Part shown: positions 61-4,707 of the stretch, piece by piece
How the letters are laid out: each line of letters begins with the position of its first letter
How positions within the stretch are numbered: the first letter of the stretch is position 1
From: a virus
Lineage: Duplodnaviria; Heunggongvirae; Uroviricota; Caudoviricetes
Direction: 5' to 3' (one strand)
IMG/VR virus record: IMGVR_UViG_2695420523_000008
DNA: 4,707 nt
Notes under the pieces: generated by a model
Told to the model about the DNA's origin: nothing
Database searches by the model: none
The model's input: the letters and a program-made list of their open reading frames with translations, nothing else
Program-made: the position numbers and the translations under genes

Positions 61-366
61 CTATTCATGCTCTTTGACCTTGCGTCGCTGGAGTTCTTCA
101 CGCGCGACGGTGACGAGTTGCCCGATCTCCTCGGCTGCTTTGATGCCGATTTGTTCGACCTTAGCCAGGGCATCCAGTGACGACACAAGGGGATTTTCTC
201 CGCTGCCTTCTGCTTGGCGGCGGGCTATTTCTCCGCGCATGGCGGTTACGATAAATCCGGCATTGCTTTCACCGTCCAGCTTAACGGATTCCATCCCTTG
301 CATAACATCTAGTGGGACTCTGACAGTTGTCAGTTGTGATTTTGCGTTTTTGTTAGCCGTTGCCAT
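61..366 (-). CDS. Putative ribbon-helix-helix (Arc/Mnt/CopG-like) transcriptional repressor, 101 aa
   Basis: ORF 61..366 on minus strand. AGGAG Shine-Dalgarno (complement of 375-379) lies 8 nt upstream of the ATG (complement of 364-366). The segment TTVRVPLDVMQGMESVKLDGESNAGFIVTAMRGEIARR fits the RHH pattern of beta-strand, helix, G-x-S-x-N turn, helix. It is transcribed divergently from the rightward operon and sits next to the palindromic operator-like sites. Family assignment is by motif pattern only. Confidence 0.6.
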   Translation of the reverse strand: MATANKNAKSQLTTVRVPLDVMQGMESVKLDGESNAGFIVTAMRGEIARRQAEGSGENPLVSSLDALAKVEQIGIKAAEEIGQLVTVAREELQRRKVKEHE

Positions 367-387
367 TTCTGAAACTCCTAATCATCG

Positions 388-465
388 GTGTGTTTCAGTA
401 TACACAAAAAAAGAAATACAAAAAGCCTTGACGTGTGTTTCATGCGCTCATAACATGAAACACAC
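388..465. promoter_or_regulatory. Operator-like sites: three copies of GTGTGTTTCA, including a perfect 12-bp inverted repeat
   Basis: GTGTGTTTCATG at 433-444 and its exact reverse complement CATGAAACACAC at 454-465, separated by a 9-bp spacer; a third copy of the half-site GTGTGTTTCA at 388-397, followed by the palindrome GTATAC at 398-403. The sites overlap the -35/-10 of the rightward promoter and the candidate -10 of the leftward promoter. Confidence 0.55.
428..456 (+). promoter_or_regulatory. Sigma70-like promoter for the rightward operon
   Basis: TTGACG at 428-433 (5/6 match to TTGACA), a 17-bp spacer, then TAACAT at 451-456 (4/6 match to TATAAT, with the conserved T1, A2 and T6 present). 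About 100 nt upstream of the first rightward start codon. Predicted from consensus only. Confidence 0.45.
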
Positions 466-493
466 CGAAAGGATTGTTGAAATACAAAGAGCA

Positions 494-527
494 ACGCCCC
501 GCAGTGCTGGGAACACATACGGGGCGT
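494..527 (+). other. Stem-loop in the leader of the rightward operon (8-bp GC-rich stem, 18-nt loop)
   Basis: ACGCCCCG at 494-501 pairs with CGGGGCGT at 520-527. No U-tract follows, so it is not a canonical intrinsic terminator. It lies between the predicted promoter and the first SD/ATG at 546-559. Confidence 0.3.
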
Positions 528-556
528 CTAACCAACAACGTAAACTAGGAGCCGTT

Positions 557-754
557 ATGGTTGCTGTAAATCATATACCACACCTTGTACACACACAAAC
601 GGCCTTTGTGTGGCGTTTTCTGGCACTGAGTGCCGGAGAATCTCAAATCATCCACGTAACCGCCTGGACGGAACGCGAAGCGCGTAGCCGTTGCCCGTCC
701 GGTTGTGTTGCTGTATTCGCTGCAAAAATCCGCCAGGGAGTGAGTCATGCTTAA
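557..754 (+). CDS. Hypothetical small protein, 65 aa (first gene of rightward operon)
   Basis: TAGGAG at 546-551, 5-nt spacer, ATG at 557. This is the in-frame 3' part of the long open frame 2..754, whose 5' part overlaps the better-supported minus-strand gene. Stop TAA at 752-754 overlaps the next start by 8 nt. A resemblance to Icd-like small proteins of P4-type elements is only a vague recollection and is unverified. Confidence 0.4.
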   Translation: MVAVNHIPHLVHTQTAFVWRFLALSAGESQIIHVTAWTEREARSRCPSGCVAVFAAKIRQGVSHA

Positions 755-1362: not shown

Positions 1363-1662
1363 ATGGAAATGAAAAATTCTGGCTTTATTGCCAGCGGCCC
1401 CGCTCGACCTGAATTTATGAACGACGATATTTACCGCGATAAATACGGCGGCACGGTAACGATTAAAGGCGTGGCAGAACGGCGCATCACTTACCGCCGT
1501 GAGGGGTATAGCTATGACTGCGTGATGCCTGTTTATCAGTTCCGGCGTGATTTTTCCCTGGTATATGCCGCACCCCGCAGTAAGCCCATCAGCAGGGAAA
1601 AAGCGTGGGGAAATATCCAGAAAATGAAAACCATGATTAACGGATTCAGAGGTAAAAAATGA
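1363..1662 (+). CDS. Hypothetical protein, 99 aa, translationally coupled to the replication gene
   Basis: ORF track 1363..1662. AGGA at 1350-1353 about 9 nt upstream of ATG 1363. Its stop TGA at 1660-1662 overlaps ATG 1659 of the next gene (ATGA). The antisense ORF 1342..1692 is rejected in its favour. Confidence 0.55.
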   Translation: MEMKNSGFIASGPARPEFMNDDIYRDKYGGTVTIKGVAERRITYRREGYSYDCVMPVYQFRRDFSLVYAAPRSKPISREKAWGNIQKMKTMINGFRGKK

Positions 1663-3413
1663 AACTGGCACCGAACGTAAAACAGCAGTCACGCGGCATA
1701 AAACACAAAGGAACAGAAGTCATTATTTTTGCGGGTAGTGATGCCTGGGCACACGCGAAACAATGGCAGGAACATGATGCGCGTATGGCCGGAGATAATG
1801 AGCCTCCTGTGTGGCTTGGGGAGCAGCAGCTATCCGAACTGGATAATCTGCAAATTGTGCCGGAAGGCCGAAAATCAGCACGCATATACAGGGCCGGATA
1901 TCTTGCGCCTGTAATGATAAAGGCGATTGGTCAGAAGCTGGCGGCAGCAGGCGTACAGGATGCAAATTTTTATCCTGAGGGTATGCACGGCCAGGAGGTG
2001 CAGAACTGGCGCGAATATCTGGCCCGTGAACGCCAGAATCTTTCTGATGGTCTGGTCATTGAGCTTCCGGTAAAGCAAAAGGCGCAACTTTCGCAGATGG
2101 CGGACAGTGAGCGCGTGCAGTTGCTTGCCGATCGCTTTGATGGCGTTTGCGTACATCCTGAAAGTGAAATCGTTCACGTATGGCGCGGCGGGGTATGGTG
2201 TCCGGTCAGCACAATGGAACTTAGCCGCGAAATGGTGGCGATCTATTCAGAGCACAGGGCCACTTTCAGCAAGCGCGTAATCAATAACGCCGTGGAAGCG
2301 TTAAAAGTTATTGCCGAACCAATGGGCGAGCCGTCTGGCGATTTGCTGCCGTTCGCCAATGGTGCGCTTGACCTGAAAACGGGGGAATTTTCCCCGCACA
2401 CGCCGGAGAACTGGATCACCACGCACAACGGCATTGAGTACACGCCACCAGCACCAGGGGAGAACATCCGCGATAACGCGCCAAACTTTCATAAATGGCT
2501 TGAGCACGCAGCCGGAAAAGACCCGCGCAAGATGATGCGTATATGTGCCGCGCTGTACATGATTATGGCGAACCGGTACGACTGGCAGATGTTTATTGAG
2601 GCCACCGGAGACGGCGGGAGCGGTAAAAGTACATTCACACACATAGCCAGCCTTCTGGCAGGGAAACAGAACACGGTAAGCGCTGAAATGACATCGCTTG
2701 ATGATGCTGGTGGACGTGCGCAGGTTGTCGGGAGTCGTCTTATCGTCCTGGCTGACCAGCCGAAATATACAGGCGAAGGAACGGGCATCAAGAAAATCAC
2801 AGGCGGCGACCCCGTGGAAATTAACCCGAAATATGAAAAGCGTTTCACGGCGGTAATCAGGGCGGTGGTGCTGGCGACCAACAACAACCCGATGATATTC
2901 ACCGAACGGGCCGGAGGTGTGGCACGTCGTCGCGTGATTTTCCGTTTCGACAATATCGTCAGTGAGGCCGAAAAAGACAGGGAGCTACCGGAAAAGATTG
3001 CGGCTGAAATCCCCGTTATTATCCGCCGATTGCTGGCGAACTTTACCGACCCTGAGAAGGCACGGGCTTTACTACTGGAACAGCGTGACGGTGATGAAGC
3101 ACTGGCAATAAAGCAACAGACGGATCCGGTTATTGAGTTTTGCCAGTTCCTGAATTTTCTAGAGGAAGCGCGCGGCCTGATGATGGGTGGCGGTGGTGAT
3201 TCAGTGAAGTACACGACCAGGAACAGCCTTTACCGCGTCTATCTGGCGTTTATGGCATACGCGGGCAGGAGCAAACCGCTAAACGTGGCTGAGTTCAGCA
3301 AGGCCATGAAGCCAGCGGCGAAAGTTTACGGGCATGAATATATTACGCGAAAAGTTAAGGGAGTAACGCAGACCAACGCAATTACAACAGACGATTGCGA
3401 CGCGTTTTTATAA
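1659..3413 (+). CDS. Replication initiator with SF3-helicase core (P4 alpha C-terminal / D5-like family), 584 aa
   Basis: Long ORF 1659..3413. Walker A GDGGSGKST at residues 317-325 (nt 2607-2633); Walker B-like LIVLAD at residues 361-366; motif C VVLATNNN at residues 403-410. The roughly 40-residue spacing A to B to C is typical of SF3 helicases. AGAGGT SD lies about 6 nt upstream of the ATG. The N-terminal ~300 aa has no motif I can confidently assign to a primase class. Confidence 0.88.
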   Translation: MKLAPNVKQQSRGIKHKGTEVIIFAGSDAWAHAKQWQEHDARMAGDNEPPVWLGEQQLSELDNLQIVPEGRKSARIYRAGYLAPVMIKAIGQKLAAAGVQDANFYPEGMHGQEVQNWREYLARERQNLSDGLVIELPVKQKAQLSQMADSERVQLLADRFDGVCVHPESEIVHVWRGGVWCPVSTMELSREMVAIYSEHRATFSKRVINNAVEALKVIAEPMGEPSGDLLPFANGALDLKTGEFSPHTPENWITTHNGIEYTPPAPGENIRDNAPNFHKWLEHAAGKDPRKMMRICAALYMIMANRYDWQMFIEATGDGGSGKSTFTHIASLLAGKQNTVSAEMTSLDDAGGRAQVVGSRLIVLADQPKYTGEGTGIKKITGGDPVEINPKYEKRFTAVIRAVVLATNNNPMIFTERAGGVARRRVIFRFDNIVSEAEKDRELPEKIAAEIPVIIRRLLANFTDPEKARALLLEQRDGDEALAIKQQTDPVIEFCQFLNFLEEARGLMMGGGGDSVKYTTRNSLYRVYLAFMAYAGRSKPLNVAEFSKAMKPAAKVYGHEYITRKVKGVTQTNAITTDDCDAFL

Positions 3414-3426
3414 TTTTTTGTAAAAG

Positions 3427-3650
3427 CCATCTACCCCATCTACCTGAACGAAATAAACGCATATTATTCAACATGATAAGTGGGTATAGGGCTAGGTAGA
3501 AGGCTAATAAAAGCTCTCTACCTCTTCTACCTGATTTTATCAGTTTCAGGTAGCAGGGTAGACGGCAGGTAGAGGAGTCAAAAAAGCTATCTACCCGCTG
3601 AAAGCCGCGCCATTACTGACATGATGAGCATTCGGGTAGATGGGTAGAGG
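3427..3650. repeat. Iteron array; candidate origin of replication for the element
   Basis: GGTAG on the top strand at 3495, 3549, 3557, 3568, 3635 and 3643, and CTACC at 3431, 3440, 3518, 3527 and 3591: 11 copies in about 220 bp, where about 0.4 would be expected by chance for one 5-mer on either strand. A perfect tandem 9-mer CCATCTACC x2 at 3427-3444 is mirrored by the inverted pair GGGTAGATGGGTAGAGG at 3634-3650. AT-rich stretches at 3446-3490 and 3504-3513 lie between repeat clusters. Located directly 3' of the helicase gene. Confidence 0.6.
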
Positions 3651-3698
3651 GGGGGAGGCACAACTAAAAACTTTTTAAACGAGGGGGGGTGAAAATAA

Positions 3699-4013
3699 AT
3701 GCGCATACATAAAAATCACTTAACAAACATGCCAGCCGAAAACATGAATCAGGGGCGACAAATGACCAAAATTCGCAGAGACAGAACACAGGCAAAATAT
3801 AAAGCGTTAGACATGACAGAGCTTTCCTTAAAGGTGGCAATCAAAGCGATAGACCACCACACACGGGCAGGATACGCGAAGGAACATCCCGACCTGATAA
3901 GCGCATTCATGACCACAGCAGCGGCAAACTTTGCCACGCTGACAGAACGGGAGATTGCCGAAGCGGAACAGGTGACAACCATCAATGTTAAAACCGGAGA
4001 GCAGACAGCATGA
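3699..4013 (+). CDS. Hypothetical protein, 104 aa (alternative starts possible at 3729, 3744 or 3762)
   Basis: ORF track 3699..4013. A G7 tract at 3683-3689 sits 9-16 nt upstream of ATG 3699 as a possible SD; the internal ATG at 3762 has its own AGGGG SD. Its stop TGA at 4011-4013 overlaps ATG 4010 of the SSB-like gene (ATGA). No recognisable motif. Confidence 0.5.
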   Translation: MRIHKNHLTNMPAENMNQGRQMTKIRRDRTQAKYKALDMTELSLKVAIKAIDHHTRAGYAKEHPDLISAFMTTAAANFATLTEREIAEAEQVTTINVKTGEQTA

Positions 4014-4432
4014 CAGCACAGATAGCGGCTTACGGGCGGCTGGTGGCTGACCCGCAGTTAAAGACCACCAGCAAAGGGACACAAATGGCGATGGCGAGTA
4101 TGGCGGTTCCCCTGCCGTGCAGCCAGGCAGATGACGGAACGGCGACGATGTGGTTATACGTCCTGGCGTTTGGCAGACAGGCCGACGCACTGGCAAAACA
4201 CCACAAAGGCGAACTGGTGAGCGTGGCGGGTAACATGCAGGTAAGCCAGTGGACAGGCCAGAACGGCGAAACGCGGCGGGGCTGGCAGGTTATCGCAGAC
4301 AGCGTAATCAGTGCGCGAACGGCGCGACCGGGCGGCAAAAAAGGCCAGCAGGGGCAGGCCACTGACGCACTGAACAGGGCAAAACAACAGTCGGGGAATG
4401 ATGATCCGTACGGCGATAATATACCGTTTTAA
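4010..4432 (+). CDS. ssb: Single-stranded DNA-binding protein (SSB) paralogue, 140 aa, with host-like C-terminal tip
   Basis: The N-terminal ~110 aa aligns by eye with the OB-fold core of E. coli SSB: GRLVADPQL against GNLGQDPEV, and WLYVLAFGRQADALAKHHKGELVSVAGNMQVSQWTGQNGETRRGWQVIADSV against [52 protein letters not shown]. A short Gly/Gln-rich linker follows, and the C-terminus DDPYGDNIPF matches the acidic D-I-P-F tip of bacterial SSB. Confidence 0.8.
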   Translation: MTAQIAAYGRLVADPQLKTTSKGTQMAMASMAVPLPCSQADDGTATMWLYVLAFGRQADALAKHHKGELVSVAGNMQVSQWTGQNGETRRGWQVIADSVISARTARPGGKKGQQGQATDALNRAKQQSGNDDPYGDNIPF

Positions 4433-4449: not shown

Positions 4450-4478
4450 ATGCCGGAAAAAAATAGATTTTCCGGCAT
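4450..4478 (-). terminator. Hairpin with perfect 11-bp stem; intrinsic terminator on the minus strand, possibly bidirectional
   Basis: ATGCCGGAAAA at 4450-4460 pairs with TTTTCCGGCAT at 4468-4478 around a 7-nt loop. On the minus strand the hairpin is followed by a U-rich tract (complement of 4438-4449, CUUUUUGUUUG). On the plus strand it is preceded by an A-tract but lacks a downstream U-tract, so it is at best a weak terminator for ssb. Confidence 0.5.
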
Positions 4479-4592: not shown

Positions 4593-4707
4593 GGTAATGA
4601 CTCCAACTTATTGATAGTGTTTTATGTTCAGATAATGCCCGATGACTTTGTCATGCAGCTCCACCGATTTTGAGAACGACAGCGACTTCCGTCCCAGCCG
4701 TGCCAGG
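4593..4707 (-). mobile_element. IS1 insertion sequence, terminal 115 bp including the right inverted repeat; continues beyond the window
   Basis: GGTAATGACTCCAACTTATTGATAGTG from 4593 matches the IS1 terminal inverted repeat as I recall it, and the following sequence through 4707 matches the IS1 insB-proximal end. Recognised from memory of the IS1 sequence, not searched. Confidence 0.88.
4608..4707 (-). CDS. insB: IS1 transposase InsB, 3' end (partial; start lies outside the window)
   Basis: Minus-strand translation of 4706..4608 gives [32 protein letters not shown] followed by a stop (TAA, complement of 4608-4610), 15 nt inside the IS1 end. Absent from the ORF track because no start codon lies within the window. 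Confidence 0.8.

Follow-up and report, generated by a model that had tools for sequence, protein, structure and literature searches.

Which protein, if any, acts on the palindrome that lies between two divergent genes of a phage satellite in Escherichia coli, and what would it switch? The question is raised by a 4,707-nt stretch of DNA (the whole stretch that was analysed, hereafter the window) from IMG/VR virus record IMGVR_UViG_2695420523_000008. In this window, a perfect palindrome and a third copy of its arm sequence occupy positions 388 to 465, between a leftward gene for a 101-aa protein of the YlcI/YnfO family (61..366, minus strand) and a rightward gene for a 65-aa Icd-like protein at the head of an operon (557..754, plus strand). 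The window is 99.7-99.9% identical to E. coli chromosomes. The initial annotation had supposed a satellite-type element, and the layout is indeed that of a Gram-negative phage-inducible chromosomal island (PICI) of the helper-embedded kind (HE-PICI). It is likely, as judged from the comparisons below, that region 385-490 is a PICI operator-promoter region, where the 101-aa protein would act as an Arc/Mnt-like repressor that occludes the icd-like/replication promoter and regulates its own gene. The proposed repressor would consist of an N-terminal domain of the ribbon-helix-helix (RHH) type (residues ~9-55) and a long C-terminal helix (residues 59-100).

All coordinates given in the initial annotation for this region were found to be correct. 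The two arms of the inverted repeat, 433-444 (GTGTGTTTCATG) and 454-465 (CATGAAACACAC), are 12 bp in length, are perfect reverse complements, and are separated by a 9-nt spacer. The 10-mer GTGTGTTTCA has exactly three exact copies in the window, at 388-397 (plus strand), 433-442 (plus strand), and 456-465 (minus strand); no further copy was found elsewhere in the window with one mismatch allowed. The 9-mer TGTGTTTCA is confined to the same three places within the 32.6-kb locus that comprises the whole element and its surroundings. The left copy and the right arm match over 13 nt (385-397 with 456-468). Could such an arrangement arise by chance? When the window was shuffled 300 times with its dinucleotide composition kept, the arms of the longest perfect inverted repeat (spacer 3-20 nt) measured 6-11 nt, and 12 nt was reached in 0/300. 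A 10-mer occurring three times within 90 bp was also seen in 0/300 shuffles.

A degenerate copy at 412-421, AGAAATACAA on the plus strand, was located by its one-mismatch relation to the top 9-mer; it agrees with TGAAACACAC at seven of ten positions. Its position is exactly where related loci carry a good copy (AGAATCACA in L014, GTCTTACAC in L006, and GTGAATACCA in L018). A tentative fifth copy, TGAAATACA on the plus strand, lies at 478-486, 22 bp after the right arm and inside the transcribed leader. It is weaker than the other four, and group-specific look-alikes occupy its position in L007, L012, L016, L018, L024, and L030. The array would then consist of four, probably five, 9-bp sites, predicted at 389-397, 412-420 (AGAAATACA, the degenerate one), 434-442, 456-464, and 478-486. 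Their centres (393, 416, 438, 460, and 482) are 22-23 bp apart, which corresponds to two helical turns.

How are the copies placed relative to the promoters? A consensus scan returned only one sigma-70-like match on the plus strand of the window, with a -35 of TTGACG (428-433) and a -10 of TAACAT (451-456) separated by 17 nt and matching at 9/12 positions. The left arm of the palindrome begins at the last base of this -35, and the -10 consists of spacer bases plus the 3 nt with which the right arm opens. The palindrome therefore spans the -35 to -10 region of the rightward promoter, as the initial annotation had stated, and its arms flank the -10 hexamer. That annotation also named a leftward -10, TATACT (the complement of 397-402, read from the sequence), and called the leftward -35 poor; both statements agree with the sequence, the -35 being CTTTTT (the complement of 420-425) with at most 2/6 matches. 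A leftward Shine-Dalgarno sequence, AGGAG (375-379, minus strand; read from the sequence), stands 8 nt before the ATG codon (364-366). Transcription is predicted to start near 462-464 (~463) rightward and at ~390 leftward.

Relative to these predicted starts, the geometry is that of a mirror image, each promoter being bracketed at ~-30..-21 and ~-7..+2. On the rightward side, putative site M (the left arm, 433..444, plus strand) covers ~-30..-19 and putative site R (the right arm, 454..465, minus strand) covers ~-9..+2. On the leftward side, putative site L (the exact copy at 388..397, plus strand) covers ~-7..+2 and putative site L′ (the degenerate copy at 412..421, minus strand) covers ~-30..-22; the fifth site (478..486, minus strand) is designated R′. 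Since the leftward -10 is bracketed by the copies at 388-397 and 412-421, the "third half-site" of the initial annotation represents one of the two arms of a further operator, an imperfect one, over the leftward promoter. The autoregulation of the leftward gene that had been suggested from this copy is supported by the comparison of related loci. The copy is no orphan, since it pairs with 412-421.

Is this arrangement kept in other elements? I compared 21 related loci, 11 from a scan of species-representative genomes and 10 distinct ones from an exact protein look-up, after orienting their intergenic regions as in the window. A further locus, L013, was left out because it is a C-terminal-only match with unrelated flanks. 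The loci represent at least 11 genera (among them Xenorhabdus, Photorhabdus, Enterobacter, Erwinia, Serratia, Citrobacter, Klebsiella, Edwardsiella, Phytobacter, and Cronobacter), plus a metagenome. All 21 share the same local map, in which the RHH gene is divergent from a short first gene that is followed by a DUF4222 gene and one of several replication protein genes, and alpA and int lie on the opposite side of the module. The rightward TTGAC is kept in nearly all relatives, with a TAnnnT hexamer as the -10 at a spacing of 17-18 nt. The leftward -10 does not change its position either; its sequence is TATAAT in six loci of Xenorhabdus and Photorhabdus (L002-L005/L008/L009) and TATATT in L006/L022.

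A motif of 9-10 bp occurs four times in every locus, at set positions ~22-23 bp apart. At site L, for example, the position is conserved and the sequence is group-specific. In nine loci whose leftward protein has an SQL(T/F)TVRV strand, the arms are invariant and the spacer is free apart from the -10. In the group C loci, the inner sites are flipped (-> -> <- <-), so that direct repeats lie around the rightward -10 with their position kept (L007, L023, L016, and L024). It is the position and the 22-23 bp phasing that is conserved, and not the palindromy. Promoter elements and repeats at fixed positions in 21 related loci thus argue that the palindrome serves as an operator over the rightward promoter, as the initial annotation had supposed.

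Which protein would read these sites? The motif differs between loci, and within a locus all copies change in concert. It was found that, in six groups, the change tracks residues 11-15 of the leftward protein, the putative DNA-reading beta strand. Proteins with LTT at residues 12-14 (strand SQLTTVRV), and also those with the strand SQLFTVRV, go with site TGTGTTTCA; those with QIS (SKQISIRI) with TGTGATTCA; those with SLT (SQSLTARI) with GTGTAAGAC; and those with (L/V/I)KN (SQ(L/V/I)KN(I/V)R(I/V)) with GTGTGTATTT. MKN (SQMKNIRF) is found with GTGTGTACA, Q(I/L)N (SQQ(I/L)NARF) with TGG(G/T)ATTCA, and AIA (SQAIAARV) with GTGTAAACA. The L014 protein is 81% identical to that of the window and differs almost only in residues 3-24, and all four of its sites carry the same single T-to-A change. 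The L008 protein is 68% identical, yet its strand and site motif are unchanged. Thus, the overall identity of the leftward protein is no predictor of the motif. In L029 of Cronobacter, the L014 strand stands on a different C-terminus, and the sites are of the TGTGATTCA type, as had been predicted before the sequence was retrieved.

The other candidate regulators do not follow this pattern. Icd-like proteins 80-94% identical to that of the window are encoded behind different operators (L016, L018, L024, and L026), while loci with identical operators show no detectable Icd-like similarity and an AlpA identity of 34% or less. The site motif tracks the strand of the 61..366 product rather than AlpA or the Icd-like protein, which points to this product as the binding protein, as the initial annotation had proposed.

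An exchange of the whole unit was found in L026, an island of E. coli O157:H7 whose leader has 97% DNA identity to that of the window and whose Icd-like protein is 94% identical. Upstream of the point that corresponds to ~484 of the window, L026 carries two copies of a different repeat, ATGGTAATTACC, around its promoter (3437-3483). It also has an unannotated leftward open reading frame (ORF; 3270-3443, minus strand) for a protein of a different RHH type (MRLPEDF..., MRLPEDFRAQLEEAAK...ELQQRGIEPKG) that is unrelated to that of the window. Since L026 shares the leader and the Icd-like gene but swaps the repressor and the operators, both travel together as a cassette. The L026 PICI has been annotated as unidirectional, and a RefSeq "Icd-like" pseudogene covers the spot of the RHH ORF.

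What kind of protein is encoded by 61..366? RefSeq labels the gene YlcI/YnfO, and the YlcI_YnfO_N model (NCBIfam NF041551) matches residues 9-50 with 63.3 bits against a cut-off of 30. No Pfam family matched the 101-aa protein above threshold; there were sub-threshold matches only. An AlphaFold monomer model (pLDDT 79) has an extended N-terminus, helices at residues 19-28 and 35-55, and a long helix at 59-100; the beta strand is not formed in this monomer. The turn D31-G32-E33-S34, read from the sequence, fits the G-x-S/T/N-type turn of RHH proteins. Proteins of this class are obligate dimers whose two strands pair into an antiparallel, DNA-reading sheet, and alternate strand residues set the operator specificity. 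An hhalign profile comparison with the Arc sequence was weak (E 0.005) and puts L12, T14, and R16 on the DNA-contacting residues Q9, N11, and R13 of Arc. Two homologues carry "Arc-like DNA binding domain" as their source name. On the whole, I consider membership of the RHH class to be well supported. The remaining C-terminal part may serve oligomerisation or backbone contacts. Within residues 45-86, this part has the sequence LDALAKVEQIGIKAAEEI with invariant E71, I73, and G74. Residues 45-86 gave a weak helix-hairpin-helix-like match to Hef (E 0.007) among PDB sequences, which the model does not reproduce; it draws one continuous helix instead.

It was also assessed whether the protein could be a type II RHH antitoxin. 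There is no adjacent toxin gene; the gene is followed by ~330 bp of gene-free DNA and then by a convergent BRO-N gene. In most relatives, the RHH gene has no same-strand neighbour, and a small one is present in L019, L024, and L030. This candidate was thus rejected. A tblastn search of the 101-aa protein against 50,697 phage records gave no match, so that a close relative is absent from the studied phages. The family namesake, YlcI of E. coli K-12, is a protein of 64 aa that has the same domain without the C-terminal extension. The ylcI gene (8252-8446 of L028, minus strand) belongs to the DLP12 prophage and is divergent from nohD (small terminase) across the cos region. Short paralogues of the DNA-binding domain of the satellite protein are thus present in lambdoid helpers. 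Cross-talk of a helper YlcI with the satellite protein, for example through mixed dimers, is conceivable from these sequences.

How might the switch work? Because the leftward protein is of the RHH type, a single dimer probably needs no more than one 9-10 bp "half-site" as its complete site. An operator role of the palindrome, as implied by the dimeric repressor of the initial annotation, agrees with the sequence comparison; the palindrome probably binds a dimer of dimers and not one dimer. In the proposed mechanism, the two-stranded sheet of an RHH dimer would read each 9-bp TGTGTTTCA-type site. Dimers on adjacent sites would lie on the same DNA face at a distance of two helical turns, and the C-terminal helix would probably tie them together in the manner of Mnt or TraM; the TraM structure 3on0 turned up in one of the searches. 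With M and R occupied, the rightward promoter would be covered at its spacer, its -10, and its start, so that RNA polymerase would be excluded and the icd-like/primase/SSB operon (SSB, single-stranded DNA-binding protein) would be silent. Occupancy of L and L′ would act likewise at the weak promoter of the protein itself. Since the two sites bracket the leftward -10, the protein would limit its own synthesis. Binding, repression, oligomeric state, and transcription starts are all inferred here.

Several points weigh against this proposal. A Foldseek search of the model against the PDB gave no match, and phmmer and hmmsearch runs against PDB sequences found no RHH protein, so that the evidence for an N-terminal fold of the ribbon-helix-helix (Arc/MetJ/CopG) class is of moderate strength. 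The leftward promoter failed the consensus scan with its poor -35, and the window's copies of L′ and R′ are degenerate. The protein and its sites are linked and co-inherited, and their co-variation is not fully independent. Finally, the published picture of Gram-negative PICIs is one of control by the activator AlpA, in which a repressor is not evident (PMC6092414), so that the protein may be auxiliary and not a master regulator. On the other side, the concerted change of four sites and the cases of L014, L008, and L029 argue for function.

The serious alternative accordingly concerns the role of the protein, auxiliary or master switch, and not its binding. The RHH protein might bind as proposed and be a mere local autoregulator or dampener, with induction decided at the alpA promoter. 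It could then limit toxic expression of the Icd-like protein, set the copy number, or provide immunity against incoming sister elements. AlpA is needed for the induction of EcCICFT073, EcCIEDL933, and EcCIMP1 (PMC6092414; 10.1101/2022.09.08.507074; PMC11773190), and alpA lies upstream of the module, outside the window, both of which would suit such a division of labour. Nevertheless, the strongest sites bracket the promoter of the replication-gene operon and not only that of the protein itself, and the element has no toxin gene after the RHH gene. Moreover, the exchange of repressor and operators ahead of a constant leader is the pattern of phage immunity regions. I consider a purely local role to be improbable, though it is the strongest of the competing accounts.

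Could the operators be real and have another ligand? AlpA, the Icd-like product acting like Cro, the BRO-N protein, and a host factor come into question. For Gram-negative PICIs, AlpA has been established as the regulator (PMC6092414), the PHROG families that match the Icd-like protein carry the label "transcriptional repressor", and a Cro-like second ligand of the same sites is compatible with the sequence. However, the operator type is independent of Icd-like or AlpA similarity, and L026 combines its nearly identical Icd-like protein and leader with an unrelated operator and RHH gene. Many loci have the module and lack the BRO-N protein. E. coli alone contains at least four types of site, which makes a host factor unlikely. 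Another binder in place of the RHH protein is therefore quite improbable.

A role of the palindrome as a hairpin in RNA or DNA (an attenuator, a site of processing in int-alpA-bro read-through, or a cruciform) is hardly credible. The arms could pair into a 12-bp stem that closes a 9-nt loop, late transcripts of the helper may run on through embedded satellites (PMC10111431), and weak microRNA-like Rfam chance matches were obtained on the minus strand (E 2.5-4.7, far below gathering scores), but the stem is not followed by a U-run and was not listed as terminator-like, the right arm contains the predicted rightward start so that the operon's own RNA would be unable to form the hairpin, the direct-orientation copy at 388-397 with its fixed 22-23 bp phase is left unexplained, and the direct repeats around the -10 of L007, L023, L016, and L024 cannot pair, yet keep their position. 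The palindrome is thus lost in group C, which speaks against the need for a hairpin. Replication iterons were considered as another function of the palindrome repeats and were rejected, because the origin repeats are found elsewhere (3421-3651) and have an unrelated sequence.

If the RHH protein is the ligand and represses the rightward promoter, is this the repressor that had seemed to be missing from Gram-negative PICIs? The protein would in that case hold the replication operon off until a helper signal removes it, and the exchangeable cassettes would define "immunity types" of satellites. The hidden, unrelated RHH gene at the same spot in L026 fits this reading, as do the RHH-only YlcI proteins of lambdoid helpers with their potential for interference through mixed dimers. 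I regard this wider role as an open possibility, a little more doubtful than not. The initial annotation saw here the expected place of the decision between quiescence and induced replication; that the region would be "the" decision point for induction is plausible.

Does the leader of the rightward operon contribute? In 16 loci, the leader (~463-556) keeps two hairpins by compensatory changes, and 9/13 pairs have double changes. The covariation score, the percentage of cells paired, and the counts of pairs and of cells changed on both sides were reached in 0/500 shuffles; a fifth measure, the number of further pair types, was reached in 149/500. Slid controls gave far lower values. Hairpin 1 (494..527, plus strand) lies in the 5′ untranslated region and has a stem of 494-501 and 520-527 with an inner 4-bp stem; it is followed by CTAACCA (528-534), which is almost invariant. 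A stem followed by ACCA recalls the RNase P-processed immunity RNAs of P1 and P4. Hairpin 2 (537..556, plus strand) holds the Shine-Dalgarno sequence of the first rightward gene (547-551) in its loop and corresponds to helix 3 of the alignment fold, with double changes in 3/4 pairs. Its pairing in the window is uncertain, since the single-sequence fold pairs this stretch differently from the alignment fold.

No Rfam family was found for the region, either with the whole window (E up to 1) or with a 251-nt slice, 370-620 (E up to 10). An immunity RNA of the C4/isrK type (P1 C4 and P4 CI; RF01695/RF01394) was rejected because there was no covariance-model match, and the homologous leader of L026 was also negative. 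The loop of hairpin 1 was considered as a sixth site and as an antisense partner of the ribosome-binding site. The former was rejected because its GAACAC motif is unchanged between operator groups, and the latter because conserved complementarity was not seen on inspection. The leader has a wider distribution than the RHH cassette, and it may contribute post-transcriptional control to the switch.

Downstream of the Icd-like gene, the operon has overlapping small genes, a DUF4222 gene, a primase-helicase gene (1659-3413), and an SSB gene (4010-4432). The rightward genes overlap or abut by 1-8 nt at ATGA-type junctions (747-754, 929-935, 1120-1127, 1659-1662, and 4010-4013), and these overlaps suggest translational coupling from the Icd-like gene onward. 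Clustered iterons of the CTACC/GGTAG type in both orientations directly follow the primase gene at 3421-3651, which is presumably the replication origin. After the SSB gene, an 11-bp GC-containing hairpin at 4450-4478 has a T-run on the minus strand only and would resemble a terminator for leftward transcription that comes in from the side of the late genes. The last part of the window (4594-4707) is the terminal part of an IS1, where intact relatives run on into the capsid gene; an O121 relative has several IS1 copies at other positions of the element.

The window covers the part of the element for regulation and replication, from the leftward gene through the SSB gene. In strain Q5 (L001), the whole element spans 11592-22279 (~10.7 kb) and interrupts a portal gene that belongs to a lambda-like prophage; in Q5 and in O121 strain 201805972 (L027), it is flanked by two halves, or by the 3′ half, of a phage portal gene. 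The order in Q5 is int, an AlpA-like helix-turn-helix (HTH) gene, BRO-N, the 101-aa RHH gene, the Icd-like gene, three small ORFs, DUF4222, and a D5_N/P4-type primase, followed by a small ORF, SSB, major capsid, decoration protein, HTH, and small terminase genes. The element thus has its own major capsid, decoration, and small-terminase genes and has no portal or protease gene, and the 101-aa gene is its only leftward gene. At least 80% of the 61-560 stretch was found in 374 of 5426 complete E. coli genomes.

The HE-PICI layout was described by Tommasini et al., who did not mention the leftward gene and the repeats (PMC10111431). The element agrees with the scheme of this type, in which int, alpA, and a Bro zone are followed by replication genes (primase, SSB, and an origin after pri) and late genes within about 10-15 kb, and lysis and tail genes are absent (PMC6092414, PMC10111431). 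Their listing of HE-PICI zones is without this module, and helper-dependent induction, replication, and packaging were shown for a related HE-PICI in the same work (PMC10111431). The AlpA activator is required for the induction of Gram-negative PICIs, while a global repressor is unclear (PMC6092414). In the literature searched, I found no report of a repressor for this class and no description of a function for this protein or these sites, although an earlier description elsewhere is possible. A 2026 survey lists YlcI/YnfO merely as a "prophage-associated protein" (PMC13612085). The proposal would be unsurprising in principle, and it makes an open question of satellite biology directly testable. 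It offers a concrete candidate: a defined protein, defined sites, and natural specificity variants, one of which differs by a single base per site. It would give a function to an uncharacterised protein family, a sequence-based typing of satellite immunity groups, and a small set of orthogonal repressor-operator pairs for the engineering of PICI-based tools. If true, satellites would have "immunity types" as heteroimmune lambdoid phages do.

The kind of system is classical, with precedents in Arc/Mnt of P22, CopG, and omega, and its position mirrors that of Stl/Rpr in Gram-positive PICIs. In the immI region of P22, the Mnt and Arc repressors act at the divergent Pant and Pmnt promoters. As in P22, a small RHH repressor would be encoded beside back-to-back promoters, with operators that overlap the promoters and a repressed operon whose functions upset quiescence. 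Mnt oligomerises through a helical C-terminal domain, and its binding form is a dimer of dimers, as is proposed for the present protein, and the hhalign comparison lays the present beta strand on that of Arc. In contrast, the sequence similarity is marginal, and one protein with four or five sites every 22-23 bp takes the place of one compact operator of 17-21 bp. The host here is a satellite, and replication and Icd-like genes would be repressed instead of an antirepressor.

The omega repressor of pSM19035 is another RHH protein, whose repeats work in direct or inverted orientation; this matches the flip of orientation between the specificity groups described above. In omega as well as CopG of pMV158 (PMC2724298), RHH dimers occupy repeated short sites that cover a promoter. 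Their sites are contiguous 7-bp heptads or one 13-bp element, respectively, whereas the present sites are 22-23 bp apart, and the present protein has a C-terminal extension of ~45 residues.

With Stl/Rpr of the Staphylococcus aureus pathogenicity islands (SaPIs) and Gram-positive PICIs, the locus shares a leftward regulator divergent from an operon that leads to pri/rep and the origin, and the expected role of keeping the island silent until the helper acts (PMC6092414). On the other hand, Stl proteins are HTH repressors unrelated to RHH proteins, and derepression by a helper protein has been shown for Stl. In SaPIs, int is co-oriented with the repressor gene, whereas here int, alpA, and bro are rightward and the RHH gene alone is leftward.

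Multiple related sites over two divergent promoters, with a poor -35 in the repressor's own promoter, recall the cI-OR-cro region of lambda. The exchange of repressor and operators as a cassette (the window compared with L026 and L014) resembles lambdoid heteroimmunity. The present protein differs in being of the RHH and not the HTH type and in having no cleavage domain of the RecA-dependent type, and the sites are spaced by two helical turns; a Cro-like second DNA-binding protein was not identified here. In P4 and P1, an immunity RNA (CI/C4) lies upstream of eta/kil or icd. The Icd-like gene of the window likewise heads an operon behind a structured, conserved leader, and C4/isrK matches have been reported in some PICIs (PMC10111431). 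Such a match is lacking here, and control is apparently exerted by a protein on its operators, with the leader as a possible extra layer.

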